DNA of 64,000 nt from a virus (Duplodnaviria; Heunggongvirae; Uroviricota; Caudoviricetes): positions 59,759-123,758 of IMG/VR virus record IMGVR_UViG_3300025310_000004; one strand, 5' to 3'. The position numbers and the translations under genes were made by a program. Shown here one piece after another: positions 11,401 to 35,404 of the stretch. The notes under the pieces were generated by a model, which was not told the origin of the DNA, made no database searches, and worked only from the letters and a program-made list of their open reading frames with translations. Each line of letters begins with the position of its first letter. Positions within the stretch are counted from its first letter, which is position 1.

Positions 11401-11546
11401 TGGTCATGAACTGTCTGCTCGCACTTCTTGAGGTTGAGGCCATGTCTGCGATGCAGCGCCCCCTGAGGGTTGGGCCGAACGGCTTGCGGGTCCCCAACGA
11501 GATGATCGAGCAGGCCCTTGAGCAGCACGAGAGGATTCCGACATGA
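8418..11546 (+). CDS. portal protein interrupted by an intein (Hint + LAGLIDADG-like endonuclease)
   Basis: 1042 aa. Portal-like exteins surround an insert that begins CFDDQTEVLTTEGW and has a WCP motif near its end. Confidence 0.6.
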   Translation: MPRSGPLRRVQLMTNRRLAGFAMARPQASAYATTAALTKIGDIKAPYGTVEAWQRDAYGYYEVIGEVGYIIGMTANTVAACEIRPIEVDNEVAPGGWRETGDERVLRVWNALVGPRGGKAELYRKASMNLQIAGECFLLGSPMEDEFGREAGISWEFISPEELKVENYGRTIKRNMGGYGGQQIVDLDPDAHYIARLWRSDPRFSDRPDCALKHVLPICREVVVLTQVVDAIAKSRLPAGILFVPDEMSFGPYDETEDDSDNTDEIDPFTQELIDHLTAPIEDRTSAASLVPLLMRGPAEFFDKVKLIDIAKELDTLYMELRQEAIHRLATGLDVPPEIMEGKGGLNHWCFDDQTEVLTTEGWKCLDEFEVGDVVLSLNHETGTTEWRPSVDMYVADVVDEPMLSIEGDRHSSLTTMDHRWPTLHRVRENVVDPETGRKTSRVVGQERIWTTSEKLNSNDSLIVGARSSEQPAEQKWSDELVEVAAWLWTEGNIRFRHQRVSPQIGIWQSIKVNPDNVARIRAALTGVFGPALESLTDGEVGRPTGDRREAAWVERIQPGRPDMVEFRLNASAADALVGLFDDPARKVLKLDFIRDLTVAQLELFIDTSIRADGTVLPAGTIHITQSDPDRLAPLELAAILSGRSTHLYETKQNGTMLSISPKTTFTLSRKQLRVVDYTGRIWCPTVPPYHSVLIRRNGKVAFTGQTGYNIDADFISKHVSPLGDMLSEFLTSAYLRPMLVEFEDMSEDEASQYRLLFDPSRITSRTDTGPNARAAYDRTELSRVAYLRESGFDEADAPDYDERKERDLRSLMAAEPIIFGPQVMGMLYPELEGELTLPESSGGNDGGDPGNPTDVPERKNDTGPSSRPVIDNETGQDEPMPRGPSGPRMEETIIDRLATGADAALERALERAGNRVLSKMNGAHVSMKDRFKSTPKTEIISGVSDRELSQLGLTLTDLFAGSWDNLAVRGKGWLRQHFIDQGIDNFTADEKAAMVMNCLLALLEVEAMSAMQRPLRVGPNGLRVPNEMIEQALEQHERIPT

Positions 11547-14500
11547 GCGGCAAGCGTTGGCTGGGGGTTGAGGCTGCTGCTGCTCGGCTCAAGGCTTCCT
11601 ACGCCGCCGATCAGCCCGACCACTCCGCCGGGATCATGGCGTGCGTGCGACCGAACGATCCAGGTCGGTTTGTTGTTGAGGGCGGCACCCCCGAGGAGGA
11701 GGTGCACCTCACCTTGGCCTACTTCGGCAAGGTGACCGACGAGGAGTGGACCGATTCAGCGCGCCAGCAGATCGCCGAGGTCATCTCGGCTGAGATCGCT
11801 GCTGACCGTGAGCCGATCCATGGCGAGATCACAGCCGTCACCACCTTCGAGTTGGCTGGCGAAGATGAACCGCCTCTCGTCTTGTTGGTTGATGCCCCTG
11901 GGCTTGGGGAGATGCGTGCGGCTCTCGTCAAGTCGGTCAACTCGGCCCTGGGTTCCGACCAGGAGATCAAGTCCAATCACGACTTCATGCCCCACATCAC
12001 CTTGTGTTACGGGGCGAATGACAGCGAGGAAGCCTTTGCCGAGGGACTCATCGGCGAGAAGGTGACCTTCGATTCGGTCGAACTTGTGTGGGGTACCGAG
12101 TCCTCCGTATGGCCCTTGGGGTCAAATCGATCCGATGCCATCTCTGACTCTGAGGCCGAGAACGGGCTACGATTTGAGGACACGAATGCCCCGCAGTTCG
12201 CTGAGCCAGGTGCCCAGGAGGGTGAGATGCCTTACGAGATCGTGGAGAAGCACCCTGAGTGCAGCGCGGGCGACCCCTACGCGGTCGTCAAGTCTGACGA
12301 CGGGGAACTGATGGGCTGCCATCCCAGCCGCCAGGATGCGGAGGAGCAGATGGCTGCTCTGTACCAGGCCGAGGAGGGCAAGGAGGAGGACTCCATCGAG
12401 GCTTCGGCCGATCCGCTAGCCATCGTGATCGGCGACGAGCCGACTCGTGATGAGCGCCTAGCGGCGATCGATGAGTTCGTTGCACCGAAGAACGGTGCTG
12501 GTGGCGGGGGCGCGAGCGACGACGAGGACGAGGAGGATGACTCTGAGTCCGAGGATGAGGTGGAGATCGAGGTTGAGGTCAAGGATTCCGAGTCCGACGA
12601 CGAGGAGTCCGACGACGAGGAGGACATGGACGCCGAGGGCTCGGCTGAGTTCCAGGCCGTGGCGATCCACCACACCCCGACTTCCGATGGGCCGTGGGAC
12701 GGTCCGGCCAACGAGGCTCGTGCCAAGTCCGGCGAGAGCGAGGACTACTACCGGAACATCTTCGCGTGGCAGGACCCCGAGGGTGACCCTGAGACGAAGG
12801 CTGCCTGGCGGTTCATCCACCACGAGGTGAGCGAGGACGGCACCCCTGGTGCCGCCAACCTGCGCGCCTGCTCGACCGGCATCGGCGTGCTCAACGGTGG
12901 GCGCGGCGGGACCACGATCCCTGCCGCCGACCGCGAGGGTGTCTATCGCCACCTGGCAGCCCACCTGGCCGATGCCGAGAAGGAGGTCCCCGAGTTGACC
13001 TCCCTAGAGGGTGGCGAGGCCATGGAGGCGGAGAGCACCGCTGAGTTCAAGGCCGTCCCCTCGCACGACACCGCCACCATCGACCCGCCCACCTTCACTG
13101 AGTGGGACGGCGATGAGGCGGCCAAGCGTGCCCGGTCCGGCGAGACGCCTGACTACTACAACAAGATTTACGCGTGGGTTGACTCCAACGGTGACCCCAC
13201 CAACAAGACCTCCTACAAGTTCCCGCACCACGTCGTGTCCGAGTCCGGTGAGCCTGGTGCAGCCGTCGTCTGGGCCGTCCACTCCTCGATCGCCGTGATC
13301 GATGACTCGACCATCCCGACGAGCGACTACCAGGGGGTCTACAACCACCTCGCCAGGCACCTGCGTGATGCTGGTGTCGAGGACATCCCCGAGTTGGGCG
13401 AGGACGTTGCATCCATCGATGAGGTGCGTGCGGCGATCGCCACGATGCGCGCTCGGTTCCACGCCATGGCCGCCAAGGCCGTGCAGGAGGCTTCCGTGTC
13501 CAAGTCCGACATCACCGCATCCGACGACCTAGCCCTAGTGGGCGAGGTGGTTCGTCGTTGGTTCGAGTCCGTCGCCAAGTCCGAGGCCAAGGCCGTCGAG
13601 TCCGACGCAGCCTTCGCTGCCGATGACGAGGCAGCCATCTCCGACTGCCCCTGCCACGATGGCGTCCTAGAGGACGGGGCTACCCACACCGAGGGATGCC
13701 CCTTCGCCAAGTGCGACGACGAGATGGCCGAGGAGGCACCCGAGGGCGAGGAGATGCCCCCGGAGGACGACGAGGTTGTGGTCGGCGACTTCAAGCGCGG
13801 CGACTACGAGTGGGAGGGTGTGCTCATCGTTGAGGGCCTACCCTCCGGCGACGGCCGCATGATCGATGAGGGTGCGCTCACCTGGCGTGAGTTGCCGGTT
13901 CCCCTCATGCTGCAGACCATCAACGCTGGTGGTCACGATGGTGCTGTCATCGCTGGTTCGATCCACGAGATCGAGCGAGTCGGCCACGAGATCGTTGGCC
14001 GCGGCTACTTCGACTCTGGTGAGGCTGGCCAGGAGGCCAAGCGTCTGCTGAGCGAGGGCACCATGCGCGGCGTGAGCGCCGACATCGATTCGGTGGTGGC
14101 CGAACTGCGCGACGAGTCTGGTGCCGACGTTGCCATGGAGGATGTGTTGTTCGGCGATCCCGGCAACGTCATGGAGGTGCTGACCGAGGGTCGCATCATG
14201 GGAGCGACGATGACGCCGTTCCCCGCCTTCCAAGAGGCACACCTCAAGGTCATCGGCAAGGATGATGTCGATGAGGACATGGTGCTGGTGGCTTCCGGCT
14301 CCAAGGCCGACGGTGAGGTCTGGCGCTTCACCAGCCCCTACCCGCTGGTTGGTCGGGGTGGAGAGTCCTACAAGGTCGAGAGCCTCGTGGCATCCGGTGG
14401 CACGGTCACCGAGTTGCCGGTTATCCCGGTCCACCCGCCGCTGGCGTGGTTCGCCGCCGAGGACCCGGAACTCGATCCCAACATGCCCTTCACGGTGTTC

Positions 14501-15232
14501 CCCAACGGACGCATCTACGGCCTCGTTGCTCGGTGGGGCACTTGCCACATCGGCTTCTCGGATCGTTGTGTCCAGGTGCCGCGGCCTCACGACGGCTACG
14601 CCAACTTCCGTTGTGGTCACGTCCTGACCGCAGAGGGCACGTTGGTCAGCACCGGCCCCATCTACGCCGACACCGTGCACCCCAGCCTCAAGATGAGCGC
14701 CAGCGACGCCCAGGCGTTCTACGCTCACACGGGTTGCGCTCTGGGTGATGTCGTGCTCTACGAGGGCGAGTTCGGCATCTTGGCCGCTGGTGCGGTCAAG
14801 TCCGATGCTCCCATCGAGGCAGTCAACCGCCTGCGCGCTGCCGGGGTTTCCCCCGACTGGCGCACCATCGATCGCAACCTTGAGATCGTCGGCCTGCTGT
14901 CGGTCAACGTCTCCGGGTTCCCGGTGTCCACCGCCCTCGTTGCGGCGGCTTCGGAGATCGGTGGCATCGTTCCCACGGTCGGCGGTGAGCCGAAGTGGGA
15001 GGTCGATCGTGGTGAGTTCACGTCGCTGGTGGCCGCTGGCTCGCTGATGCCGTGCACCAACTGCGGATCGCACTCCATCGACAACGGGACGGCTCTGGCC
15101 CTCCTTGAGATGCTGAACGATCACGCCATCAAGATCGCCGAGTTGAGCGAGGTTGTGCGCCCCTACCGCATGGAGCGGCTGGTGTCTCGCTTGACCGAAC
15201 TCGGCATCGGGAGTGATCGCTCCGACAGTTAG
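11543..15232 (+). CDS. polyprotein-like fusion: 2H phosphoesterase domain, 2x ~130-aa repeats, U35 prohead protease, C-terminal domain
   Basis: HLTLAY and HITLCY H-x-T/S-x motifs at the N-terminus. Repeats FQAVAIHHTPTSDGPWDG / FKAVPSHDTATIDPPTFTEWDG. Protease block EGVLIVEGLPSGDGRMID...PLMLQ..H. Confidence 0.6.
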   Translation: MSGKRWLGVEAAAARLKASYAADQPDHSAGIMACVRPNDPGRFVVEGGTPEEEVHLTLAYFGKVTDEEWTDSARQQIAEVISAEIAADREPIHGEITAVTTFELAGEDEPPLVLLVDAPGLGEMRAALVKSVNSALGSDQEIKSNHDFMPHITLCYGANDSEEAFAEGLIGEKVTFDSVELVWGTESSVWPLGSNRSDAISDSEAENGLRFEDTNAPQFAEPGAQEGEMPYEIVEKHPECSAGDPYAVVKSDDGELMGCHPSRQDAEEQMAALYQAEEGKEEDSIEASADPLAIVIGDEPTRDERLAAIDEFVAPKNGAGGGGASDDEDEEDDSESEDEVEIEVEVKDSESDDEESDDEEDMDAEGSAEFQAVAIHHTPTSDGPWDGPANEARAKSGESEDYYRNIFAWQDPEGDPETKAAWRFIHHEVSEDGTPGAANLRACSTGIGVLNGGRGGTTIPAADREGVYRHLAAHLADAEKEVPELTSLEGGEAMEAESTAEFKAVPSHDTATIDPPTFTEWDGDEAAKRARSGETPDYYNKIYAWVDSNGDPTNKTSYKFPHHVVSESGEPGAAVVWAVHSSIAVIDDSTIPTSDYQGVYNHLARHLRDAGVEDIPELGEDVASIDEVRAAIATMRARFHAMAAKAVQEASVSKSDITASDDLALVGEVVRRWFESVAKSEAKAVESDAAFAADDEAAISDCPCHDGVLEDGATHTEGCPFAKCDDEMAEEAPEGEEMPPEDDEVVVGDFKRGDYEWEGVLIVEGLPSGDGRMIDEGALTWRELPVPLMLQTINAGGHDGAVIAGSIHEIERVGHEIVGRGYFDSGEAGQEAKRLLSEGTMRGVSADIDSVVAELRDESGADVAMEDVLFGDPGNVMEVLTEGRIMGATMTPFPAFQEAHLKVIGKDDVDEDMVLVASGSKADGEVWRFTSPYPLVGRGGESYKVESLVASGGTVTELPVIPVHPPLAWFAAEDPELDPNMPFTVFPNGRIYGLVARWGTCHIGFSDRCVQVPRPHDGYANFRCGHVLTAEGTLVSTGPIYADTVHPSLKMSASDAQAFYAHTGCALGDVVLYEGEFGILAAGAVKSDAPIEAVNRLRAAGVSPDWRTIDRNLEIVGLLSVNVSGFPVSTALVAAASEIGGIVPTVGGEPKWEVDRGEFTSLVAAGSLMPCTNCGSHSIDNGTALALLEMLNDHAIKIAELSEVVRPYRMERLVSRLTELGIGSDRSDS

Positions 15233-19008: not shown

Positions 19009-19849
19009 CCAGGCCGCTCTGGACGCTGGGCACCTGCTCTCGCAGACCCACCCCGAGTTCGACCTGACGATCTACAACTACTCGTCGCTGTGCCAGATCA
19101 GCCGCGCCTGGACCCCGGTCACCTCGTCGTGCCGGGGCATGATCGTCGGTCCCGACGGCAAGGTGCTGGCTCGGCCGTTCCCGAAGCGCTACAATCATCA
19201 GATGGCGCGATTCTCAAGCACCCCCGAAGCCGCAGCGATCGATCACGAGTTCTTTGGGACCGGGAAGCCCGAGGCTGATTGGCTAGCCGGGCTTGTGGCG
19301 GCGGATGGCTGCATCAAGAACGAGAAGTTCTGGACCATCACACAGTCGGGGGATCACGGACTTGAGTTGATTGAAGCGGTCAGGGGCATGATCAACCATG
19401 GCCTGTCTGTTGGTCACTACAAGCCCAAGCGGGGACGAGTGGCTCATTCGATCTACGTTCCGTCGGCCCAGATGGTGGCAGACCTGGCGACCAACTACAG
19501 CATCACGCCCCGTAAGAGCCTCACGTTGACTCCCCCCACATTGGACGAAAGTCGGTTCTCTAACTTCCTGAGGGGCTACATCGACGGAGACGGCACCGTG
19601 GGGAGATACTCGGTGGGGCGCTGTCCGAACTACCTGATCGTATGCTTGGTCGGAACCGAGGACTTCATCGAATCGGTACACCACCTCAACGAGTCCGGGC
19701 GCGTGAGGGAACTCAAGAGGGCCAAGAATACTTGGGAGATCAGGTTCAACGGGAATCACGCCGTTGACTTCTGTCGTCGGACATATGCGGCTGGGAGCGA
19801 CCTTCCTGTCACGACCAAGGCGAAGAAGGCTTTGGGAGCAATCGGATGA
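18971..19849 (+). CDS. LAGLIDADG homing endonuclease fused to a duplicated RNA-ligase N-terminal segment
   Basis: The first ~100 aa parallel the N-terminus of ORF 19846 (HPEFDL.IYNY...CRG.IV). Then LAGLVAADGCI and LRGYIDGDGTV dodecapeptide motifs. Confidence 0.6.
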   Translation: MIDLHALFAPDDIQAALDAGHLLSQTHPEFDLTIYNYSSLCQISRAWTPVTSSCRGMIVGPDGKVLARPFPKRYNHQMARFSSTPEAAAIDHEFFGTGKPEADWLAGLVAADGCIKNEKFWTITQSGDHGLELIEAVRGMINHGLSVGHYKPKRGRVAHSIYVPSAQMVADLATNYSITPRKSLTLTPPTLDESRFSNFLRGYIDGDGTVGRYSVGRCPNYLIVCLVGTEDFIESVHHLNESGRVRELKRAKNTWEIRFNGNHAVDFCRRTYAAGSDLPVTTKAKKALGAIG

Positions 19850-20940
19850 ATCACATTGGCGAGTTCTTGGATTTGGCCTCCCTGGATGCCCACATCGAAG
19901 CGGGCAACATCTCTCGATCCCCACATCACGAATTCGACCTCTACGTCCTGAACTACACGAACCAGGCGCAGTTCTCTCGCTCGTGGGACAACGAGACGCT
20001 TAATTGCCGGGGCCTGATTGTTGACTCGGGCGGTCTGGTCGTTGCTCGAAGTTGGGCCAAGTTCTTCAACCACACCGAGACGGCCGTCCCCAAGTACGCC
20101 CTGACCACGCCGCCCATCGTCACCGAGAAGATGGATGGCTCGCTGGGGATCATCTACCAGCGTCCCGATGGGCGCTTCGCCGTCGCCACGCGTGGCTCGT
20201 TCGCGTCTGACCAGGCCGTCTGGGCAACGCAGTGGCTCACCGTCGAGATGCCGGGGTTCATCCAGCCTGCTGGTGTGACCACCCTGGTGGAGATCATCTA
20301 CCCCGAGAACCGGATCGTTGTGGACTACGGCGACCGTGCGGAGTTGGTGCTGCTGGGTGCCATCAACATCGCCACCGGAGCCGACATCCCCCTGTGGGAG
20401 ATCGACTGGTGGCCTGGTGCTCGCGCCGAGATGCACACCGGCATCGGCCACATGGACGACGTGTACCGCTTCGCGACGGGCAACGAGAAGGAGAACGATG
20501 AGGGCATCGTGGCGGTCTGGTACCGCCCCGGCGAGCCGTCGTTCCGGCTCAAGGTGAAGCACCCCGAGTACGTCCGGCTCCACCGGATCATCACGGGCAT
20601 CAATACCAAGCGCGTCTGGGAGGTGCTGGCTTCTGGCGGCGACTTCTACGACGTACTGGATCGTGTCCCCGACGAGTTCTACGGCTGGGTCAAGGGGGTC
20701 ATCACTGACCTCCGCAACCAGTACCAGGACATCGAGGATGCGGTCTATGAGCAGTTCCAGATCATCTGCCTCAACACCGACGACGGCGACCGCAAGGGCT
20801 TCGCCGCCAAGGCCAAGGCCACGCCGTGGCCGGGGTTGATGTTCGCCCTGCTCGATGGCAAGGACATCGAGCGTGCCATCTGGGACATGATCAAGCCCAA
20901 GGCCGAGAAGCCCTTCGCTGACCAGGGTGAGGACACCTGA
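19846..20940 (+). CDS. RNA ligase (Rnl-type nucleotidyltransferase)
   Basis: KMDGSLG motif I lysine. Sits beside a Pnkp gene. Confidence 0.7.
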   Translation: MNHIGEFLDLASLDAHIEAGNISRSPHHEFDLYVLNYTNQAQFSRSWDNETLNCRGLIVDSGGLVVARSWAKFFNHTETAVPKYALTTPPIVTEKMDGSLGIIYQRPDGRFAVATRGSFASDQAVWATQWLTVEMPGFIQPAGVTTLVEIIYPENRIVVDYGDRAELVLLGAINIATGADIPLWEIDWWPGARAEMHTGIGHMDDVYRFATGNEKENDEGIVAVWYRPGEPSFRLKVKHPEYVRLHRIITGINTKRVWEVLASGGDFYDVLDRVPDEFYGWVKGVITDLRNQYQDIEDAVYEQFQIICLNTDDGDRKGFAAKAKATPWPGLMFALLDGKDIERAIWDMIKPKAEKPFADQGEDT

Positions 20941-21006
20941 TCCTCCCCTGGTCAGTGTCGCAGTGGTGTGCTACTATCACGCCACGCCAAGAGAGAGGAG
21001 ACACCC

Positions 21007-21864
21007 ATGGCACGACTCATCATCACCCGAGGTCTACCGGCATCGGGCAAGTCCACCTGGGCGATCGAGCAGATCGCCAAGAACCCCGGTCGCACCATCC
21101 GTGTCAACCGGGATGACATCCGCGCCTCGATCCATGGCGGCGGCAAGTGGTCCAAGACCAAGGAGAAGGCGACCGTTGCAGTTCGCGACGCCATGATCCG
21201 TGCTGGTCTGGCGCAGGGCCTCACGGTCATCTGCGACGACACGAACCTGCCCCAGAAGGTCGTGGACGACCTGACCTTCCTGGCGCACGAGGCCAAGGCC
21301 GATGTGCTGGTGCAGGACTTCACCCACGTCTCGCCCGAGGAGTGCATCAAGCGTGACCTCGCCCGTGAGCGCACGGTGGGGGCCGAGGTCATCATGCGGT
21401 GGTACAACGACTTTCTCAAGCCGGACATGACCGTCACCGTGGATGAGTCCAAGCCCAAGTGCGTCATCGTGGACGTGGACGGCACCCTCGCCCTCCACGT
21501 CGCTCGCGGCCCCTTCGAGTACGACAAGTGCTCGACGGACGCTCCCAATCCCCGTGTGGTCGAGTTGATCAAGATGCTCCGCTCGACCTACGAGGTGGTG
21601 GTGTGCTCTGGCCGTGAGGGCACCGATCAGTGCCGCGCTGACACCATCGAGTGGCTGCAGCGTCACGGCATCACCTTCTCGGGGTTCTTCATGCGCCCCG
21701 AGGGTGACATGCGGAAGGACGCCATCATCAAGCGCGAGATTCTGGAACGGGACATCCTCCCGCGCTGGAACCCTGTGCTGGTGGTGGACGACCGCGATCA
21801 GGTCGTCCGCATGTGGCGCGATGCCGGGCTGACCTGCTGGCAGGTCGCCGACGGCAACTTCTGA
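21007..21864 (+). CDS. pnkp: polynucleotide kinase-phosphatase (T4 Pnkp-like)
   Basis: N-terminal P-loop GLPASGKST and C-terminal HAD motif VIVDVDGTLA. Confidence 0.8.
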   Translation: MARLIITRGLPASGKSTWAIEQIAKNPGRTIRVNRDDIRASIHGGGKWSKTKEKATVAVRDAMIRAGLAQGLTVICDDTNLPQKVVDDLTFLAHEAKADVLVQDFTHVSPEECIKRDLARERTVGAEVIMRWYNDFLKPDMTVTVDESKPKCVIVDVDGTLALHVARGPFEYDKCSTDAPNPRVVELIKMLRSTYEVVVCSGREGTDQCRADTIEWLQRHGITFSGFFMRPEGDMRKDAIIKREILERDILPRWNPVLVVDDRDQVVRMWRDAGLTCWQVADGNF

Positions 21865-22671: not shown

Positions 22672-22684
22672 CGCAACAACACAT

Positions 22685-22754
22685 AGGCCAGCCACAGGGT
22701 GGACGGGAGTCTCCAAAACTCCTAGGCAGGGTTCGAGTCCCTGTTGGCCTGCCA
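22685..22754 (+). tRNA. tRNA-Trp(CCA) with shortened D-arm, CCA encoded
   Basis: Anticodon stem GGAGT/ACTCC. Anticodon loop CTCCAAA. Only 14 nt between acceptor and anticodon stem. Confidence 0.5.
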
Positions 22755-22755
22755 A

Positions 22756-24566: not shown

Positions 24567-25256
24567 ATGAACGTGATCCTGCAAGGGGTTGTCGGCTCAA
24601 CCGCCTACGGCCTCGCTACCCCAACTTCCGACATCGACCGCCTCGGCGTGTTCCAAGCCCGCACCTCTGAGTTGCTGGGCCTGCATCCGCCCAAGGAGTC
24701 GCGCGTCTCGACCAACCCGGACGTGACCCACCACGAGTTGGGCAAGTTCGTGAAGTTGTGCCTGGCGAACAACCCCACGGTGATGGAGTTGCTCTGGCTT
24801 GACGAGTACGAGGTGATGACCCCCCTGGGTGAGCGCCTCATCGAGCATCGTCAGTCCTTCATGTCGCAGCGCATCCGCAAGACCTACGGTGGCTATGCCC
24901 GCCAGCAGTTCGAGCGGCTGATGCGTCGTGAGGAGGCCGAGCCGGGCGCTGGCTTCGCTGCCGACCTCAAGAAGCGCACCGAGAAGCACGCCCGCCACTG
25001 CTACCGCCTCATCCTGCAGGGCACCCATGCGCTTCGCACGGGTGAGTTGCGGGTGCGGCTGACTTCTGAGGAAGTTCAGATGTGCCGTGAGGCTGGGCTG
25101 ATGGCAGCCAATGACGTGGTGGAGTTCGGCAAGTCCGTCGAGATCGCCATGGCCGAGTTCGATGCCACCCCCACGGACCTCCCTGAGCATCCCGACGATG
25201 CGGACGCGAACTCGATGCTCGTGGTGGCTCGCACGCTCGATCTCACCGCTCCCTGA
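24567..25256 (+). CDS. Pol-beta-superfamily nucleotidyltransferase
   Basis: VVGSTAYGLATPTSDIDRLGVF GS..D.D motif. Confidence 0.65.
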   Translation: MNVILQGVVGSTAYGLATPTSDIDRLGVFQARTSELLGLHPPKESRVSTNPDVTHHELGKFVKLCLANNPTVMELLWLDEYEVMTPLGERLIEHRQSFMSQRIRKTYGGYARQQFERLMRREEAEPGAGFAADLKKRTEKHARHCYRLILQGTHALRTGELRVRLTSEEVQMCREAGLMAANDVVEFGKSVEIAMAEFDATPTDLPEHPDDADANSMLVVARTLDLTAP

Positions 25257-25273
25257 GAAACTCCTTGCGCGGG

Positions 25274-25295
25274 TGTCGCACCCAGGTGCTAAGGT
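25274..25295 (+). promoter_or_regulatory. conserved promoter motif TGTCGCACCC-N6-TGcTAAGGT (copy 7)
   Basis: Upstream of a 27-codon ORF (ATG ~25340, AGGAGG SD) and the tRNA cluster. Confidence 0.45.
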
Positions 25296-25439
25296 GATCG
25301 AAGAACGCATCGAGCGTTGAGCCACAGGAGGTGACCCAAATGCGAGCGTGTACGAGCATCACAACTGAGATGACCGGCGCTGGCATGGGGATTCCCGTAG
25401 GCTCCGGTCGATTTACCGGCTGACGCTGGTAGCCCAGGT

Positions 25440-25515
25440 CGCGGCTGGGTGAAACGGTTTCCACGCCTGGCTCATAACCAGGAGACATCCGGTTCGACTC
25501 CGGTAGCCGCCACCA
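25440..25515 (+). tRNA. tRNA-Met(CAT), initiator-like (C1·C72 mismatch, A73), CCA encoded
   Basis: Acceptor CGCGGCT/AGCCGCC. Anticodon stem CCTGG/CCAGG. Anticodon loop CTCATAA. Confidence 0.55.
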
Positions 25516-25648
25516 ACCTGCCAGACCGATGATGGGACGCCCACCGAATGACCCGGAGGCGAAACCCGGAGGTCTGACTCCCGACGAGATGGTGCAGGCC
25601 ACTTGTCGGACTCGGGTGAGGGGGCTTCGGCCCCCCACCCGACACCAT

Positions 25649-25722
25649 GGGGCAGCATGTACCAAGGCGGGCGACAGTGCTTTGCAAGCACCGTGTGGTG
25701 GGTTCGATTCCCACCTGCTCCA
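25649..25722 (+). tRNA. tRNA-Ala(TGC) with G3·U70
   Basis: Acceptor GGGGCAG/CTGCTCC. Anticodon loop TTTGCAA. T-arm GTGGG-TTCGATT-CCCAC. Confidence 0.6.
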
Positions 25723-25781
25723 CTGCAGCAGGGTCACCTGCGAGCAAGCGATCATTGACAACTGAATAGGTCTACACAGAT

Positions 25782-25849
25782 GGGGCACGCGCAGGGCGCA
25801 CGCGTCGCTGGCAGCGAAGCATCGCGGGGTTCGAGTCCCCGGTGCTCCA
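25782..25849 (+). pseudogene. tRNA-Ala-like pseudo-tRNA lacking an anticodon loop
   Basis: Acceptor GGGGCAC/GTGCTCC with G3·U70 and a canonical T-arm. Only 36 nt separate them: helix TCGCT/AGCGA with a 3-nt loop. Confidence 0.4.
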
Positions 25850-26029
25850 CTGTGGGGAAGGCCGACGGACAAGGCTTAGGCCCGTGAGAGCGTCAGTACG
25901 AACGTGGGAGGACTTCGGTCCGCTTCACCACGCGGAGGCGTTCAAGCCGGGGTGGGTAGCGAGTGGTCGAGTTCTTCCCCCACCAAGGTCGTGGTACGGC
26001 TCCGGGCAACCGGGCCGCCACGGCCTCGT

Positions 26030-26104
26030 GCGGCATAGGTGTTACGGGTTGCATACCTGCCTTCCAAGCAGAGGGACGGGGTTCGAGTCCCCGATGCCGC
26101 TCCA
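26030..26104 (+). tRNA. tRNA-Gly(TCC), CCA encoded
   Basis: Acceptor GCGGCAT/ATGCCGC. Anticodon loop CTTCCAA. Confidence 0.65.
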
Positions 26105-26217
26105 ACCCCATGGATCGGAGTCGCTACCCGCTCCATGCGTCGCCCTACTGCTGACGGGGGCGTGAAGGTGATACCCCACGAGAGTGTGCACGCTCGACCG
26201 GGGCACGTCGGCTCCAA

Positions 26218-26292
26218 GCGTTCAAGGTGTTCCTGGCTGCACGCCACCTTGCCATGGTGGAGGAGGGGGTTCGAGTCCCCCTGGACGCTCCA
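26218..26292 (+). tRNA. tRNA-Gly(GCC), CCA encoded
   Basis: Anticodon stem CCACC/GGTGG. Anticodon loop TTGCCAT. Confidence 0.7.
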
Positions 26293-26293
26293 A

Positions 26294-26369
26294 GGTTCTC
26301 AGGTGTCCGGTTGGATCGGCACGACGGTCTGAAAAGCCGTAGGGCTGGGTTCGAGTCCCAGGGGAACCA
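26294..26369 (+). tRNA. tRNA-Phe(GAA)
   Basis: Anticodon stem ACGGT/GCCGT. Anticodon loop CTGAAAA. Confidence 0.7.
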
Positions 26370-26374
26370 CACAA

Positions 26375-26414
26375 GGTGTTTCCACTGTTTCCTCTGGCGG
26401 AAACAGGAAACACC
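26375..26414 (+). other. long imperfect hairpin in tRNA spacer (GGTGTTTCC..GGAAACACC)
   Basis: About 16 bp of pairing around the loop tctggc. Confidence 0.4.
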
Positions 26415-26421
26415 GAGGACA

Positions 26422-26499
26422 TGCACGGGTAGCGCCAAGCGGCAAAGGCACCTCCTTCACACGGAGGGGATCGTGGGTTCGAGTCCCACCCCGTGTACC
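26422..26499 (+). tRNA. tRNA-Val(CAC), CCA encoded
   Basis: Anticodon stem CCTCC/GGAGG. Anticodon loop TTCACAC. Confidence 0.7.
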
Positions 26500-26500
26500 A

Positions 26501-26577
26501 AGCGCCGGTGCCCGAGCGGCCTAAGGGGGCGGCCTGCAAAGCCGTACTACGGGGGTTCAAATCCCCCCCGGCGCTCC
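26501..26577 (+). tRNA. tRNA-Cys(GCA), CCA encoded
   Basis: Acceptor GCGCCGG/CCGGCGC. Anticodon loop CTGCAAA. Confidence 0.65.
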
Positions 26578-26682
26578 ATCGCAAGAACTCCCACCCGAGC
26601 ACTCGGGGGTGGATCGAGTAACAAGGACCCATCGTCCCCCGCTTCGGCCGGATCGGTGCTAGGAACCCACTGAGTGCGTCAC

Positions 26683-26762
26683 CGGGGCGTATACCCTCCG
26701 TCTGATAAGCGGTAGAAAGGTTAGTTGGTGACACGGAGGTTCAAATCCTCCCGCCCCGACCA
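26683..26762 (+). tRNA. atypical tRNA (possible Ile-GAT loop CTGATAA; D-region too short, long extra region), CCA encoded
   Basis: Acceptor CGGGGCG/CGCCCCG and a canonical T-arm. The internal region does not fold canonically. Confidence 0.3.
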
Positions 26763-26763
26763 T

Positions 26764-26925
26764 GGTGAGAGACAGGAAGGTACGAGGGTTCGATTCCCTC
26801 ACGCTCCACTCGTGGGGCGTCCGGTGGACTCCGGTGAAGTCGGTTCGATTCCGACGCCCCGTAGGGGTGATGGTCACGAATAGGGTCGCTCCCGCCGAGG
26901 TGGTTCGACTCCACCACTCTCACCA
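26764..26925 (+). ncRNA. three tandem tRNA-like T-arm/acceptor minihelices enclosed by an 8-bp terminal helix, ending CCA
   Basis: T-arms at ~26784, 26851 and 26905, spaced 54-67 nt apart. 5' GGTGAGAG pairs with 3' CTCTCACC. Confidence 0.4.
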
Positions 26926-26931
26926 GATCAT

Positions 26932-27008
26932 GCACGGGTGGCCAAGTCTGGTAAGGCCCCTCCATGACACGGAGGAAACCGCGGGTTCAAATCCCGCCTC
27001 GTGCACCA
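26932..27008 (+). tRNA. tRNA-Val(GAC), CCA encoded
   Basis: Anticodon loop ATGACAC. T-arm GCGGG-TTCAAAT-CCCGC. Confidence 0.65.
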
Positions 27009-27009
27009 C

Positions 27010-27083
27010 TGCGCCGAAGTCGATTGGCGAGACAGCGGCCTCATAAGCCGTGGTAGAGGGTTCGATTCCCTCCGGCGCGACCA
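27010..27083 (+). tRNA. tRNA-Met/Ile2(CAT), CCA encoded
   Basis: Anticodon stem GCGGC/GCCGT. Anticodon loop CTCATAA. Confidence 0.6.
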
Positions 27084-27084
27084 C

Positions 27085-27159
27085 GCACCCAAGGTCTAGA
27101 CGGCGAGACGGCGGCATGGTAAGCCGCAGAGCGGGGTTCAAGTCCCCGTGGGTGCTCCA
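27085..27159 (+). tRNA. tRNA-Thr(GGT), CCA encoded
   Basis: Acceptor GCACCCA/TGGGTGC. Anticodon loop ATGGTAA. Confidence 0.7.
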
Positions 27160-27160
27160 C

Positions 27161-27235
27161 GCACTGGAAGCATGAATGGTGATGCGGCTGTCTCGTAAAC
27201 AGCAGAACCGGGTTCGATTCCCGGCCGGTGCTCCA
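27161..27235 (+). tRNA. tRNA-Thr(CGT), CCA encoded
   Basis: D-stem GCAT/ATGC. Anticodon loop CTCGTAA. Confidence 0.75.
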
Positions 27236-27236
27236 T

Positions 27237-27308
27237 GCCGTTGGCCCTGGTGGGCGCGCCGCCGTTGTACCGCGGTTACCTCGGGTTCGATCCCTGGCGA
27301 CGGCTCCA
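27237..27308 (+). tRNA. atypical tRNA: reduced D-arm and apparent 9-nt anticodon loop (CGTTGTACC), CCA encoded
   Basis: Acceptor GCCGTTG/CGACGGC. T-loop TTCGATC. Confidence 0.35.
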
Positions 27309-27360
27309 AGCACTAGACATCGTTAGACCTGTTCAGTTGTCTGCCCTCAAGGAGACAGAT

Positions 27361-27995
27361 CATGCGAGTTGAGATTCGCCCCGGTGAAGGGGGTGAGGAC
27401 GCCCAGCGCTTCGCCAAGGAGTGCCTTTGACGCGTTCTGCAAGGCGGCCCGCCGACGTGGGCTTGAGCCAGCAGTCAGCGAGTCCGCTCGCACCATGATC
27501 TTGGAGATCGCCGACATCTCCTTCCTTGAGCCCTTCGTCGGCACCCACCGCGTGCAGCGCATCCCCAAGGGGGAGCAGCGCCGTCACACCTCGACGGCCA
27601 CGGTTGCGATCGTCGGCCAGGTAGACAATGACGACTTCATCCCCGATGAGGAAATCGAGGAGCGGTTCGATCGCGGTGGCGGCAAGGGTGGCCAGCACCA
27701 GAACACCACCGACTCGGCGGTGACCCTCACCCACACCCCCACCGGGATCACGGTCCACATCGAGGGACGCAAGCAGTGGGGCAACCGCCAGGAAGCACGT
27801 CGGGTGCTATCCGAACGGGTAGCAGCCCATCGCCGAGCAGAGGCGTTGCGGATGTGCAACGACCAGCGGCGCGCCCAGATCAACCCGGAGCGCTCCGCCA
27901 AGTCGTTCACCCACAACACTCAGCGCAACGAGGTGGTGGACCACGACTCGGGTCGGTCGTGGCGGCTCACCGAGTTCCATAAGGGCAAGTTCTGA
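27361..27995 (+). CDS. prfH-like: class-I release-factor homologue lacking domain 1 (RF-H/PrfH-like); full length requires +1 frameshift at CUU UGA C
   Basis: Frame A gives MRVEIRPGEGGEDAQRFAKECL then TGA. The +1 frame continues DAFCKAARRRG...HRVQRIP...GGQHQNTTDSAVTLTHTPTGI. AAGGAG sits 3 nt upstream of CTT. Confidence 0.65.
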
Positions 27996-28017: not shown

Positions 28018-28827
28018 GTGCCGATGGCCAGGATGCTCGTACTCGGTGACACGCACGGCGACGTGAAGTTCTTGGAGCGCGCCTGCCGGATGGCCGTGAA
28101 GTCCGACTGCGACCGCATCGTCCAGGTCGGCGATTGGGGCTTCCTGTGGCCAGGAGCGAAGAACGATCGCCTCAAGGCGATCACCAACGTGTTGGCGCAG
28201 TTCGACCTCCACATGTTCTTCCTCGACGGCAACCATGAGTGGTATGGCCGCTTGGAGGAGATGGGGGCGACCCCCGATGCTCCCCACATGGTTGCGCTGT
28301 CGGATCGGGTCGCCTACTTGCCTCGTGGCTTCACTTGGGCTTGGGGCGGCGTGACCTTCATGTCGCTTGGCGGTGCCTTCTCCATCGACCAGGACCAGCG
28401 GACCAAGTTCATCGACTATTGGCCCCAGGAGACGATCCGTTACGCGGACGCTGACCGTGCCATTGCCGCTGGGCATGTGGACGTGATGTTCACCCACGAC
28501 GTTCCCGAGGGCGTTGTCAAGTTGGAGGCGATGCTGCATCGCGCCAGTGATCACTACCGGAGGTCCTACGGGGCCAAGTGGAACTACAAGTTGGACCCCG
28601 GCAGCCGGGCCAACCGCAAGACGTTGCGCGCCGTCGTTGACGAGGTGCAGCCCTTCTTGCTGATCCACGGCCACTACCACTGGCGCTACGACGACACCTT
28701 GGTGGGCGAGGACTACACCACCGAGGTGCGCGGCCTTGACTGCAACGGCTCGGGCGAGAGGGCCTGGGGAGTCGTGGATACGGCCGATGTCTTGAGATGG
28801 AGACTTGTCGTTGACGACGACGAATGA
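28018..28827 (+). CDS. calcineurin-like metallophosphoesterase
   Basis: GDTHGD, GDWG, DGNHE and GHYH motifs. Confidence 0.75.
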   Translation: MPMARMLVLGDTHGDVKFLERACRMAVKSDCDRIVQVGDWGFLWPGAKNDRLKAITNVLAQFDLHMFFLDGNHEWYGRLEEMGATPDAPHMVALSDRVAYLPRGFTWAWGGVTFMSLGGAFSIDQDQRTKFIDYWPQETIRYADADRAIAAGHVDVMFTHDVPEGVVKLEAMLHRASDHYRRSYGAKWNYKLDPGSRANRKTLRAVVDEVQPFLLIHGHYHWRYDDTLVGEDYTTEVRGLDCNGSGERAWGVVDTADVLRWRLVVDDDE

Positions 28828-30249: not shown

Positions 30250-30254
30250 CTTGA

Positions 30255-30323
30255 TCGATGGTGGCCGCAATTGGTAGCGGTAGCCCGACGGGGTTTGTGC
30301 GGGTTCGAGTCCCGTCCATCGAT
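30255..30323 (+). pseudogene. tRNA-like with canonical acceptor/T-arm but collapsed anticodon arm
   Basis: Acceptor TCGATGG/CCATCGA and T-arm GCGGG-TTCGAGT-CCCGT. Internal CCCGACGGG. Confidence 0.3.
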
Positions 30324-33099: not shown

Positions 33100-33790
33100 C
33101 TAGTTCGCAAGACCCCAGACCGCAAGGACGGGGCACTACAACTGAATAGATCGCAGCAGCAGCGTTGCGTAGGAACGGGTTACTTCTCCTGTTAAGAGAG
33201 TGGAGAGGGTTCGACTCCCTCCGGGGCCGCCAACATGGTCCCGTGGTGTAACGGCCAGCACACTAACCGTCACCTGATCCGCCGAGTTCTCGCTGCTGCT
33301 CAATCGCACGACGACGTTGCGAAGCGTTGGGATACTTCCGGTACCACTTTCACCGGGCCTACCTCGTGGTCGAGGACCTGCACTCCGTTGCAGGAAGTGG
33401 GGTTCGATTCCCCGGCTCTCCTCCTGATGCGCCAAGTTCTCGTCGTCGCACCACCTCGGTGGCGATGCGTAGCGTTGGGATACTTCGGTAACACAGGTTC
33501 GACTCCTGTCGGCCAGAGCAATCTGGTTTGGCCCCACTTCGGAGGGGCATCGAGTCCTCGGACTCAACAGCACTCCTGATGCGCCAAGTTCACGCCACCA
33601 AGATGTGGGACGTTGCGAAGGTCCGGGTTACTTCTGGCTTCCAATCAGACCCAACACCTGTACCGACGAGTTCTCGTCCCCTCAACCGCTGGTGGCGGTG
33701 GCGATGCGAAGCCATGGGTTACTTCATCTTGGAACGAACACCTGCGGCGACCAAGTTCACGCCACTGCACCCAGCCCAACCGAAAGGAGC
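33100..33790 (+). ncRNA. tandem array of Y-RNA-like repeats with tRNA-like T-arm modules upstream of Ro60 gene
   Basis: Four to five ~150-bp units share GTTGCG(A/T)AG..GGGTTACTTC and CCTGATGCGCCAAGTTC. T-arms at ~33204, 33397 and 33494. Confidence 0.5.
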
Positions 33791-33796
33791 ACCACC

Positions 33797-35404
33797 ATGG
33801 CCAAGTTCTCGAACACCAAGCCCGCGCCGCGCAAGCGTGCGACGGCCCCGACGAAGGTGACCGGCACCCGCCTCGCTACGCACGAGGGCGGCACCGGCTA
33901 CGCCAAGGACGACAAGACGGCCCTCTACACGCTGGCCGTCACCAACATGGTCGGCGAGCCGACCTTCTACGAGTCCGGCAAGGACCGTGACGACCGCTTC
34001 CGCACCCTGGTGCGGCGCGTGACCACGCAGGACCCCACCTGGGTCGCCGGGTTCATCGGCTTCCTCCGCAACGAGGCCAACATGCGGTCGGCATCGATCG
34101 TCGTGGCTGCCGAGGCGGCCAAGACCCTGCTCGACCTGCGCGCCAAGGGCGTCGAGGTGGACGGCAACGTGCGCTCAATCATCGCTTCGGCGTGCGAACG
34201 TGCCGATGAGCCTGCAGAGATGCTGGGCTACTGGCTCGCCAACTACGGCCGCGCCCTGCCCATGGGCGTCAAGCGCGGCATCGGCGACGCGGCTGTGCGT
34301 CTCTACACCGAGCGCAACGCTCTCAAGTACGACGGCGGAAGCCGTGGCGTGCGGATGGGCGACGTGCTCAACCTGACCCACCCCACCCCTGGTGCGGCCT
34401 GGCAGTCGGACCTGTTCCGCTACCTGCTGGACCGCCGTCACGGGCACGCCGAGGGCGTGGTCCCCGAGACGCTGGCGACCATCCTCGCCGCAACCGACCT
34501 CGACGCGACCCCCGAGGGTCAGCGTCGTGCGCTCCTGCGTGAGCGTGGCCCCGAGGCTCTGGCCGACGCGGGCTACACCTGGGAGCGCCTGAGCGGCTGG
34601 CTGCCCGGCGGCATGGACGCCGAGGCGTGGGAGGCCATCATCCCCTCGATGGGGTATATGGCCCTGCTGCGGAACCTCCGCAACTTCGAGCAGGCCAAGG
34701 TGGAGAAGGCCGTCCTCAAGGGCGTGGCCGACCACCTGGCTGACCCCGAGGCTGTGGCCAAGAGCCGTCAGTTCCCGTACCGCTTCTTCTCGGCGTGGAA
34801 GGCGTCGGGCAGCACCTTCTTCGGTGCTGCGCTTGAAGCGGCGCTGGACGAGTCGGTCAAGAACCTCCCGATCTTCTCGGGGCGCACCCTGGTCGCCATC
34901 GACACCAGCGGCTCGATGCAGTCGCCCGTGTCGGGCCGCAGCCAGGCGCAGTGCTACGAGGTGGGCGCGCTGTTCGGCTCTGCCGTGGCCGCTCGCTCCG
35001 ACTGCGACGTGATCCTCTACGCGGATCGCTGGGACTGGTTCACCCCCGAGGTGTCCGTCCTGCGTTCGGTGGAGAAGGTCCGTCGTCTGATCGGCGAGGT
35101 CGGGTACGGCACCAACACCTGGCCGTCCGTCGCCCAGGCGTTCGCCAACAAGGGCGGCTATGACCGCATCGTGGTCATGACCGACTGCCAGGACCACCCG
35201 GCTCGTGGTGGCCTCTACGGCCACCGCGACACCAGCACGCTGCCGGATGTCCCGATCTACGTCTGGGACCTCCGCGGCTACGAGGCCACCAACATCGACA
35301 ACACGCCGGGGCGCTACCTGTTCGGAGGCTTCTCCGACGCGGCGTTCAAGATGATCGCTCTCATCGAGCGCGGTCAGAACGCCGAGTGGCCCTGGCTCGA
35401 CTGA
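33797..35404 (+). CDS. rsr: Ro60/Rsr orthologue (TROVE domain + vWA domain)
   Basis: N-terminal TROVE-like region and C-terminal vWA MIDAS DTSGSM. GAAAGGAG SD. Confidence 0.75.
   Translation: MAKFSNTKPAPRKRATAPTKVTGTRLATHEGGTGYAKDDKTALYTLAVTNMVGEPTFYESGKDRDDRFRTLVRRVTTQDPTWVAGFIGFLRNEANMRSASIVVAAEAAKTLLDLRAKGVEVDGNVRSIIASACERADEPAEMLGYWLANYGRALPMGVKRGIGDAAVRLYTERNALKYDGGSRGVRMGDVLNLTHPTPGAAWQSDLFRYLLDRRHGHAEGVVPETLATILAATDLDATPEGQRRALLRERGPEALADAGYTWERLSGWLPGGMDAEAWEAIIPSMGYMALLRNLRNFEQAKVEKAVLKGVADHLADPEAVAKSRQFPYRFFSAWKASGSTFFGAALEAALDESVKNLPIFSGRTLVAIDTSGSMQSPVSGRSQAQCYEVGALFGSAVAARSDCDVILYADRWDWFTPEVSVLRSVEKVRRLIGEVGYGTNTWPSVAQAFANKGGYDRIVVMTDCQDHPARGGLYGHRDTSTLPDVPIYVWDLRGYEATNIDNTPGRYLFGGFSDAAFKMIALIERGQNAEWPWLD

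Follow-up and report, generated by a model that had tools for sequence, protein, structure and literature searches.

Large tRNA arrays in phages are currently regarded as a means of countering host defences that target tRNAs. Several described classes of RNA resemble tRNAs in part, and the element reported here was compared with each of them. The mascRNA/MEN-beta RNAs and the viral 3' tRNA-like structures are tRNA mimics that use tRNA processing enzymes and do not decode; they differ from the present element in coming from eukaryotes and RNA viruses and in having a single cloverleaf-like fold. Minihelices made of an acceptor stem and a T-arm serve as substrates of RNase P, the CCA-adding enzyme, and TruB, while the tmRNAs (RF00023, RF04321) have a tag ORF and pseudoknots. 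The YrlA-class Y RNAs of bacteria carry the Ro-binding motif GNCGAAN0-1G, are located within about 4 kb of the Ro60 gene and on its strand, and arrange their modules in the order V, T, AS, D (Chen et al., 2014, PMC4201824); a structure preprint (10.1101/312249) was also used for this comparison. No description of an RNA like the one presented below was found in the literature searched.

The window, the whole 64,000-nt stretch of DNA that was analyzed and to whose positions the element coordinates refer, is part of a large actinobacteriophage genome with a GC content of ~62%. It contains portal, major head, and tape-measure genes, and the cultured phages nearest to it are Streptomyces phages of the family Stanwilliamsviridae. 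ARAGORN called 37 tRNA genes on the + strand between 17.9 and 31.2 kb, and this array is interleaved with genes for RNA repair and ribosome rescue (Table 1); in relatives of the window, RtcB additionally adjoins the RF-like gene. Further T-arm-bearing tRNA-like genes received no ARAGORN call; judging from how their positions compare with the arrays of relatives, this set probably comprises non-canonical tRNAs for Trp, Ala(GGC), Phe(GAA), and Thr(UGU) and one other gene. Neither ARAGORN nor Rfam at gathering thresholds placed a gene in the 353-nt stretch from 26579 to 26931, in which the element lies.

Table 1. Positions of the features discussed in the text (window coordinates unless a contig is named)
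Feature	Position	Strand	Remark
1229-aa ORF	11543-15232
Rnl1-type RNA ligase	19846-20940
PNKP	20968-21864
RlaP nucleotidyltransferase	24567-25256
tRNA-like genes with a T-arm but no ARAGORN call	22673-22755; 25782-25848; 26302-26369; 27236-27305; 30254-30323
Spacer between tRNA-Cys and tRNA-Ile	26579-26682		structured
Copies of the Cys-Ile spacer	L006 3166-3314; L066 2157-2304; L146 2075-2180; L152 4962-5029
Non-canonical tRNA-Ile(GAU)	26683-26762
Element: closing helix, 5' strand GGTGAGAG	26764-26771	+	perfect inverted repeat
Element: single-stranded linker ACAGGAAGGTAC	26772-26783	+	conserved; family motif GGnnGGUA
Element: T-arm 1 (T1), GAGGG-TTCGATT-CCCTC	26784-26800	+
Element: 18-nt insertion ACGCTCCACTCGTGGGGC	26801-26818	+	window only; missing from L152 and all Streptomyces phage copies
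Element: hairpin H, CCGG-TGGACT-CCGG	26821-26834	+	D-arm-like; UGG loop in most members
Element: T-arm 2 (T2), GTCGG-TTCGATT-CCGAC	26839-26855	+
Element: hairpin stacked on T2, GCCCC-GTA-GGGGT	26856-26868	+
Element: most conserved block AATAGGGTCGCTCCCGCCGA	26879-26898	+	nearly invariant in 9 members
Element: mini-hairpin GGG-TCGCT-CCC	26883-26893		within the most conserved block
Element: T-arm 3 (T3), GGTGG-TTCGACT-CCACC	26899-26915	+	one unpaired A, then closing helix
Element: closing helix, 3' strand CTCTCACC	26917-26924	+	followed by AGATCAT
tRNA-Val(GAC)	from 26932
RF-1-domain protein (PrfH/ArfB-like)	27369-27995
Metallophosphatase	28018-28827
Y-RNA-like genes, three in tandem	~33152-33301; 33306-33449; 33458-33599		directly upstream of Ro60 ORF
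Ro60/TROVE protein	33605-35404
Structured RNA in the Ile-Val(GAC) slot of relatives	L006 3391-3496; L066 2380-2485		~106 nt
Permuted two-piece tmRNA gene	L004 ~1540-1780
Copies of the non-canonical tRNA-Ile	L001 ~1506-1584 (phage Mildred21)		and 88 other phage records

A preliminary description of the window had proposed that three T-arm hairpins are enclosed here by perfectly complementary outer ends, forming one closed, tRNA-derived unit. A pattern search requiring five paired positions, G53-C61, and a loop of TTCRANN recovered three strict T-arms, all of which are canonical (5 bp, G53-C61, UUCRANY loop). Across the whole window, the pattern had 47 matches on the + strand and a single one on the - strand, and it is therefore specific for tRNA-type genes. 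The outer arms TGGTGAGAG (26763-26771) and CTCTCACCA (26917-26925) are 100% complementary over 9 nt, in agreement with the proposal, with U26763 able to supply a ninth pair of the closing helix. The 5' arm begins 1 nt past the encoded CCA of the non-canonical tRNA-Ile, and the 3' arm occupies exactly the position of an acceptor 3' strand relative to T3. In the likewise proposed CCA terminus, two Cs are engaged in pairs with G26764 and G26765, and most other members lack a CCA end, so that the proposed ending in CCA, which would not be a free tail here, is not supported. Rfam 15 gave no family at or above its gathering threshold for the element, and 26764-26925 had no RF00005 match even at E<=10; lax thresholds yielded only weak, partial matches inside the element, to tRNA-Sec (21.2 bits) and permuted tmRNA (17.6 bits). 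The expectation that tRNA finders would fail or score low was thus borne out in the window, where ARAGORN was also silent. The single-sequence fold was modestly better than that of shuffled sequences (z = -2.1), and with a z-score of only this size the window sequence alone is no proof of function.

Syntenic relatives were retrieved via the neighbouring RF-like and RlaP proteins. They have in common the array order Gly, Gly, (Phe), Val(CAC), Cys, Ile(GAT), Val(GAC), Met, Thr, Thr, and RF-like gene, and they vary in the content of the slot between Ile and Val(GAC). This slot measures 1-11 nt in four relatives (L005, L009, L147, and L148), 66 nt in L146, 94 nt in L007, 106 nt in L006 and L066, which hold a different structured RNA with a covarying outer helix of its own, and about 169 nt in the window, where the element takes up 161-163 nt. 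An independent assembly (L150) is identical to the window over 5952 bases. The closest relatives by protein, L145 (RF-like protein 89% identical) and L151 (RlaP 89% identical), are contigs that end short of the slot. Three orphan T-arms were found in the slot of the metagenomic contig L152 (NCBI JALYEI010001339.1), whose RlaP is 77% identical to that of the window. The two elements are 84% identical apart from one 18-nt indel, or 73% with the indel counted, and their helices differ by paired changes: the closing helix GGUGAGAG/CUCUCACC of the window reads GGUGAAGG/CCUUCACC in L152, and the T1 stem GAGGG/CCCUC reads GACGG/CCGUC.

An IMG/VR scan with a motif common to these two copies retrieved L155, which is identical to the cultured Streptomyces phage Comrade. 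The Comrade copy has a 12-bp closing helix (UUUAUACAGAGU/ACUCUGUAUAAA) and three T-arms with different stems, together with the same linker and block motifs. Further carriers are Patelgo, Faust, TunaTartare, Sham, Stigma, and NootNoot, and blastn found the element in at least 26 cultured Streptomyces phage records; the carriers span phage subfamilies with GC contents of 51-63%. Megablast of the element region against the phage collection gave no match, and exact-word scans of IMG/VR with three window-specific strings returned nothing or only the unrelated contig L004. Two candidate homologues were rejected: L153, retrieved by a genome scan, proved to be a normal tRNA-Arg(CCG), and the similarity of L154, which lies in AT-rich DNA, is due to chance. 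The element is missing in some close relatives (MeganTheeKilla, Mildred21, L005, and L009) and is therefore dispensable in some backgrounds. Its presence in cultured, genetically tractable Streptomyces phages makes expression, partners, and phenotype directly testable.

A covariance model, R1, was built from the window copy with its insertion removed, L152, and L155. Members scored 83-172 bits, with 128 bits for the window, while elsewhere in the window and in ~925 kb of tRNA-array loci from phages no score exceeded 36 bits, the weaker matches being runs of adjacent ordinary tRNAs. For the alignment of nine copies, the window insertion was removed first and the sequences were then realigned with the covariance model, since MAFFT misregistered several stems. 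Standard pairs filled 97.9% of the pair cells, a count inflated by near-identical phages, and 19 of the 36 pairs had changed on both sides. All eight closing-helix pairs covaried and were 100% paired; covarying pairs numbered two in T1, three of four in hairpin H, two in T2, and three in T3, for which five different stems occur, whereas the GGG/CCC pairs of the mini-hairpin never varied. The covariation score was 0.533 versus 0.158 for shuffles, and the shuffled controls never reached the observed pairing, two-sided changes (by pairs or by cells), or covariation score. Slid registers gave at most 7 covarying pairs versus the 19 observed. Because the alignment behind the pair counts had been fitted to the model, it is biased towards the structure; the same architecture nevertheless emerged when L152 was folded by MFE without constraints. 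In the window copy, hairpin H fell within an insert of the model-based alignment, and its pairing was read directly from the sequence.

As read from the aligned copies, the conserved core is formed by the three T-arms, hairpin H, the mini-hairpin, and the closing helix. Its order is a closing helix of 8-12 bp across the family, a GG-rich linker, T1, the D-like hairpin, T2, the AAUAGGGUAGCUCCCGCCG block, and T3 abutting the closing helix, in an RNA of about 135-160 nt; the window copy has the helix, the linker, the three T-arms, and the block, and covariation supports this layout. The three UUCGAnU loops, the linker motif GGnnGGUA (its GG..GGUA invariant in the nine-sequence alignment), and the block AAAUAGGGUAGCUCCCGCCG are nearly invariant. 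The stated absence of an anticodon arm from all three units held, none being found in any of the 9 members aligned, and the structure and conservation agree with a closed tRNA-derived unit that is not a tRNA.

Between the window and L152, identity is 57-82% in the flanking tRNA genes, 46-52% in the spacers, and 55% at four-fold-type third codon positions in RlaP. Set beside the identity of the element itself, these values indicate that it is constrained about as strongly as functional tRNAs. Taken together, the comparative sequence evidence indicates that a genuine and conserved gene for a structured RNA, hitherto without annotation, lies within phage tRNA arrays. In view of the strong covariation and the purifying selection, its product is very probably a stable, functional RNA and not processed spacer.

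These data bear directly on the idea that the element is non-functional debris, that is, decayed tandem fragments of tRNA genes in which the acceptor hairpins are junctions of paralogous copies. T1 with its tail does match tRNA-Ala, the T3 region matches the tRNA-Arg(CCG) of L153, a search of ~140 loci for a T-arm plus closed hairpin mostly returned junctions of adjacent paralogous tRNAs, and the slot is variable among relatives. The compensatory changes across nine copies, conservation equal to that of functional tRNAs next to spacers near saturation, and persistence across phage subfamilies of such different GC content nevertheless make debris a very improbable account, which may well describe the origin of the element but not its present state.

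The window copy differs from all others by the inserted tail of T1. T1 plus tail is 92% identical to the 3' end of tRNA-Ala(TGC) of relatives, and a 28-nt stretch over T1 and the start of the tail recurs without any difference in the acceptor piece of L004's permuted tmRNA, so the insertion is most likely, to judge by these matches, a product of recombination with a tRNA-Ala or tmRNA-type 3' end. Together with GT at 26819-26820, it creates a closed hairpin ACGCTCCA/TGGGGCGT that mimics an alanine-type acceptor stem (G3:U70, A73). The hairpin 3' of T1, ACGCUCCA-CUCG-UGGGGCGU (26801-26820), thus rests on the insertion and was found in no other member. The hairpin 3' of T2 is strong in the window and L152 and consists of weak AU pairing in the Comrade group; the four Faust-type copies (Faust, TunaTartare, Sham, and NootNoot) lack it. 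The insertion also makes the pairing of GGGGCG (26814-26819) ambiguous, with upstream ACGCTCC and downstream CGCCCC as alternative partners. Consequently, the preliminary layout of three consecutive T-arm/acceptor minihelices fits the window copy but not the family, in which only T3 with the closing helix is universal, and even in the window the three acceptor helices as drawn are mutually incompatible.

The contig that shares the acceptor sequence (IMGVR_UViG_3300020049_016458) is a low-GC phage contig, and its circularly permuted two-piece tmRNA gene was undetected by ARAGORN. Its acceptor piece ends in ...GGTTCGATTCCCTCACGCTCCA, its coding piece starts with GGGGCGTACGGGTTTTGACAGG, and its tag ends in ...ARLAA*.

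The element might also be read as an unusual decoding tRNA, with T1 as an anticodon arm (CGA), or as a two-piece tmRNA-like domain chargeable with alanine through the G3:U70 hairpin. T1, ACGCTCCA, a short loop, and GGGGCGT in the window, i.e., ACGCUCC-A followed by GGGGCGU, match the permuted tmRNA of L004 in order and sequence, and there were weak matches to tmRNA models (17.6-25.3 bits against a gathering score of 47). Both the G3:U70-type stem and these matches are explained by the tRNA-Ala/tmRNA-like tail; the G3:U70 hairpin is absent from the eight other members, the three frames read by eye include none that ends in a hydrophobic ...AA tag, there are no pseudoknots, and ARAGORN reported no tmRNA at the element. 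As for a tRNA, ARAGORN and the deposited Comrade record call the first half a tRNA-Ser. This call would require base pairing between the 5' strand and the tail that follows T2, which is possible in the AU-rich Comrade copy only, and not in the window, L152, or Faust; moreover, each of the three loops is a T-loop (UUCGA) that has a pyrimidine at position 37. With provisional assignments for the Trp-like and Phe-like genes, all 20 amino acids appear to be covered by the tRNAs and tRNA-like genes of the window array, so the element is not needed as a decoder. We therefore give hardly any credence to a role in decoding or in tagging.

The deposited tRNA-Ser(tcg) of Comrade (NC_048728.1, 77362-77443; L156 1375-1456) is the 5' half of a three-T-arm RNA in which T1 was misread as an anticodon arm with the anticodon CGA. 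The same label occurs in the records of SparkleGoddess, Belfort, and Karp; apart from these three close relatives and Comrade itself, the element is unannotated in the matched phage records. Deposited phage genomes have therefore either missed the element or mis-annotated it as tRNA-Ser. Three other tRNA-type explanations were rejected: a permuted tRNA, as there are no anticodon-stem halves; an intron-bearing tRNA, as the length of the RNA does not suffice for a group I intron and an anticodon arm is lacking; and an attP-like tRNA 3' fragment, as the acceptor part is missing in other members.

Like YrlA, the element has a terminal closing stem but no free acceptor end, and its modules of tRNA origin include a canonical T-arm and a hairpin resembling a D-arm; YrlA-like RNAs occur in actinobacteriophages too. 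Since a Ro60 protein is encoded in the window and the order T1, closed hairpin, D-like hairpin of the window copy reproduces the T-AS-D order of YrlA, the element might be a fourth Y RNA of this phage, tethering Ro60 to another factor via its tRNA-like modules as bacterial YrlA does. Several observations argue otherwise. Neither the 5' region GGUGAGAGACAGGAAGG nor any member contains the motif GNCGAAN0-1G, and the element has none of the strand motifs common to the three bona fide Y RNAs (33152-33599); the distance to Ro60 is 6.7 kb, beyond the range typical of YrlA; and no Y RNA was matched in Rfam. The hairpin corresponding to AS is the window-only insertion, a small hairpin following T1 directly in the other members, and the T-AS-D order is accordingly confined to the window. 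The element further differs from YrlA in having three T-arms instead of one and an invariant AAUAGGGUAGCUCCCGCCG block, and it lacks a conserved AS stem. All 13 of the 13 Streptomyces phage records with a Ro60 homologue were non-carriers, and no carrier appeared among the Ro60 matches. The element is thus independent of Ro60, and a Y-RNA-like effector, one of the roles suggested in the preliminary description, is quite improbable, also in view of cultured carriers that have no Ro60 gene.

The three Y-RNA-like genes of the window each have a long terminal stem, the common strand motifs GCGUUGGGAUACUUC ... CCUGAUGCGCCAAGUUC, and an internal T-arm. One contains a tRNA-like module in standard order and the others have the T-hairpin order; none reached the Rfam gathering score.

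The element also resembles tRNAs and their minihelices. All three hairpins have G53-C61 and a U54-U55-C56-R57-A58 loop, T3 is stacked with a 1-nt bulge on a helix at the acceptor-stem position, and the spacing among tRNA genes is tRNA-like. It differs from them in lacking an anticodon arm, a normally placed D-arm, and a conserved NCCA end, and in being 135-160 nt long with two extra T-arms between the acceptor strands. The T-loops may find D-loop-like partners in the GG dinucleotides of the GGnnGGUA linker, and the UGG loop of hairpin H could likewise stand in for a D-loop. No sequence or model match to mascRNA/MEN-beta or the viral 3' tRNA-like structures was found on the element, and sub-threshold mascRNA matches fell on neighbouring tRNA-like genes.

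The position of the element relative to its neighbours suggests how such an RNA could be produced. In the window and L152 it starts 1 nt past tRNA-Ile with its encoded CCA and stops 7 nt short of tRNA-Val. In NootNoot it occupies the entire interval between tRNA-Gly and tRNA-Arg, and in four further phages (Patelgo, Faust, TunaTartare, and Sham) a tRNA follows its 3' end at a distance of 3-6 nt. The neighbours differ by phage (Ile/Val, Gly/Arg, or Arg/tmRNA), a phage tmRNA gene adjoins the element in several Streptomyces phages, and in Comrade the tmRNA gene lies ~90 nt downstream. No promoter-like site and no + strand terminator-like site was found in 25200-27500 of the window. The element would be co-transcribed within the polycistronic tRNA precursor and could be released by the maturation cuts of its neighbours, namely the cut by which RNase P forms the 5' end of the tRNA that follows and the 3'-end processing of the tRNA that precedes it. 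T3 with the closing helix may itself resemble an acceptor/T-arm minihelix to RNase P, although it is not a perfect minihelix for this enzyme because of the 1-nt bulge and the helix length, which varies from 8 to 12 bp.

The alternative is a purely cis-acting element, one without a trans function that organizes the cleavage of the tRNA precursor by RNase P, RNase Z, or RNase E, or that protects the precursor. The constant location within tRNA arrays, the ends at tRNA boundaries, and the likeness of T3 plus closing helix to an RNase P minihelix substrate are in line with this main rival explanation. Against it, most tRNAs of these arrays are processed without such an element, the slot of relatives can be as short as 1-11 nt, the flanking tRNAs differ between phages, and an invariant 20-nt block with three fully canonical T-loops exceeds the needs of a cleavage signal. 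A role restricted to cis-acting processing is thus distinctly unlikely, and a trans-acting tRNA mimic remains the most likely role.

We lean, with modest confidence, towards the view that 26764-26924 of the window is a member of a new family of phage noncoding RNAs that are released by tRNA processing and act in trans as mimics of the T-arm or elbow of tRNA. The mature RNA would display three tRNA-like T-loops or elbows and might serve during infection as a sponge or scaffold for a factor that recognizes them. Candidate partners, of which there may be more than one, are host defence enzymes that target tRNAs, enzymes of tRNA modification or maturation, and RNA-repair enzymes of the phage. A more specific version, which we regard as possible but rather unlikely, is that the triple-elbow mimic excised from the array sequesters or redirects a host factor that binds T-arms or elbows, such as a tRNA-targeting anti-phage nuclease, a nucleotidyltransferase toxin, RNase P, TruB, or TrmI, as an RNA-based device for anti-defence or translation takeover. 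The mimic would then guard the phage and host tRNA pool beside the tRNA-repair enzymes of the phage. Phage genomes with such arrays also encode enzymes for tRNA repair, tmRNA, release-factor-like proteins, and Ro60/Y RNAs, and three bare T-arms under selection as strong as that on tRNAs suggest an unrecognized RNA player in the conflict between phage and host over tRNAs.

Other structured sequences were observed around the element and elsewhere in the window. The spacer between tRNA-Cys and tRNA-Ile, which is conserved in relatives and has no Rfam match, has AAGAACUCC at its 5' end and forms a helix over a long range, CACUCRGGGG / CCC(U)ACYGAGUG, in which one pair covaries and which encloses variable hairpins. 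The RNAs in the Ile-Val(GAC) slot of L006 and L066, which represent another lineage, have a covarying outer helix (CGUGAG/CUCACG versus GCAGG/CCUGC); they were rejected as members of the family, having only short strings in common with the window and being undetected by model R1. The non-canonical tRNA-Ile(GAU), which ARAGORN missed and Rfam detected with lax filters only (31.7 bits), has no normal D-arm and carries a 22-nt variable region with the D-loop-like sequence GUUAGUUGGUGAC. An unannotated copy, ~80% identical and with compensatory stem changes, lies between the tRNA nucleotidyltransferase and FtsK genes of Streptomyces BE-cluster phages. Lastly, the 1229-aa ORF adjoining the portal gene of the window is an unusual fusion, with an N-terminal RNA-ligase-like region (PHROG 2659/14859) and C-terminal portal-/prohead-protease-like regions.
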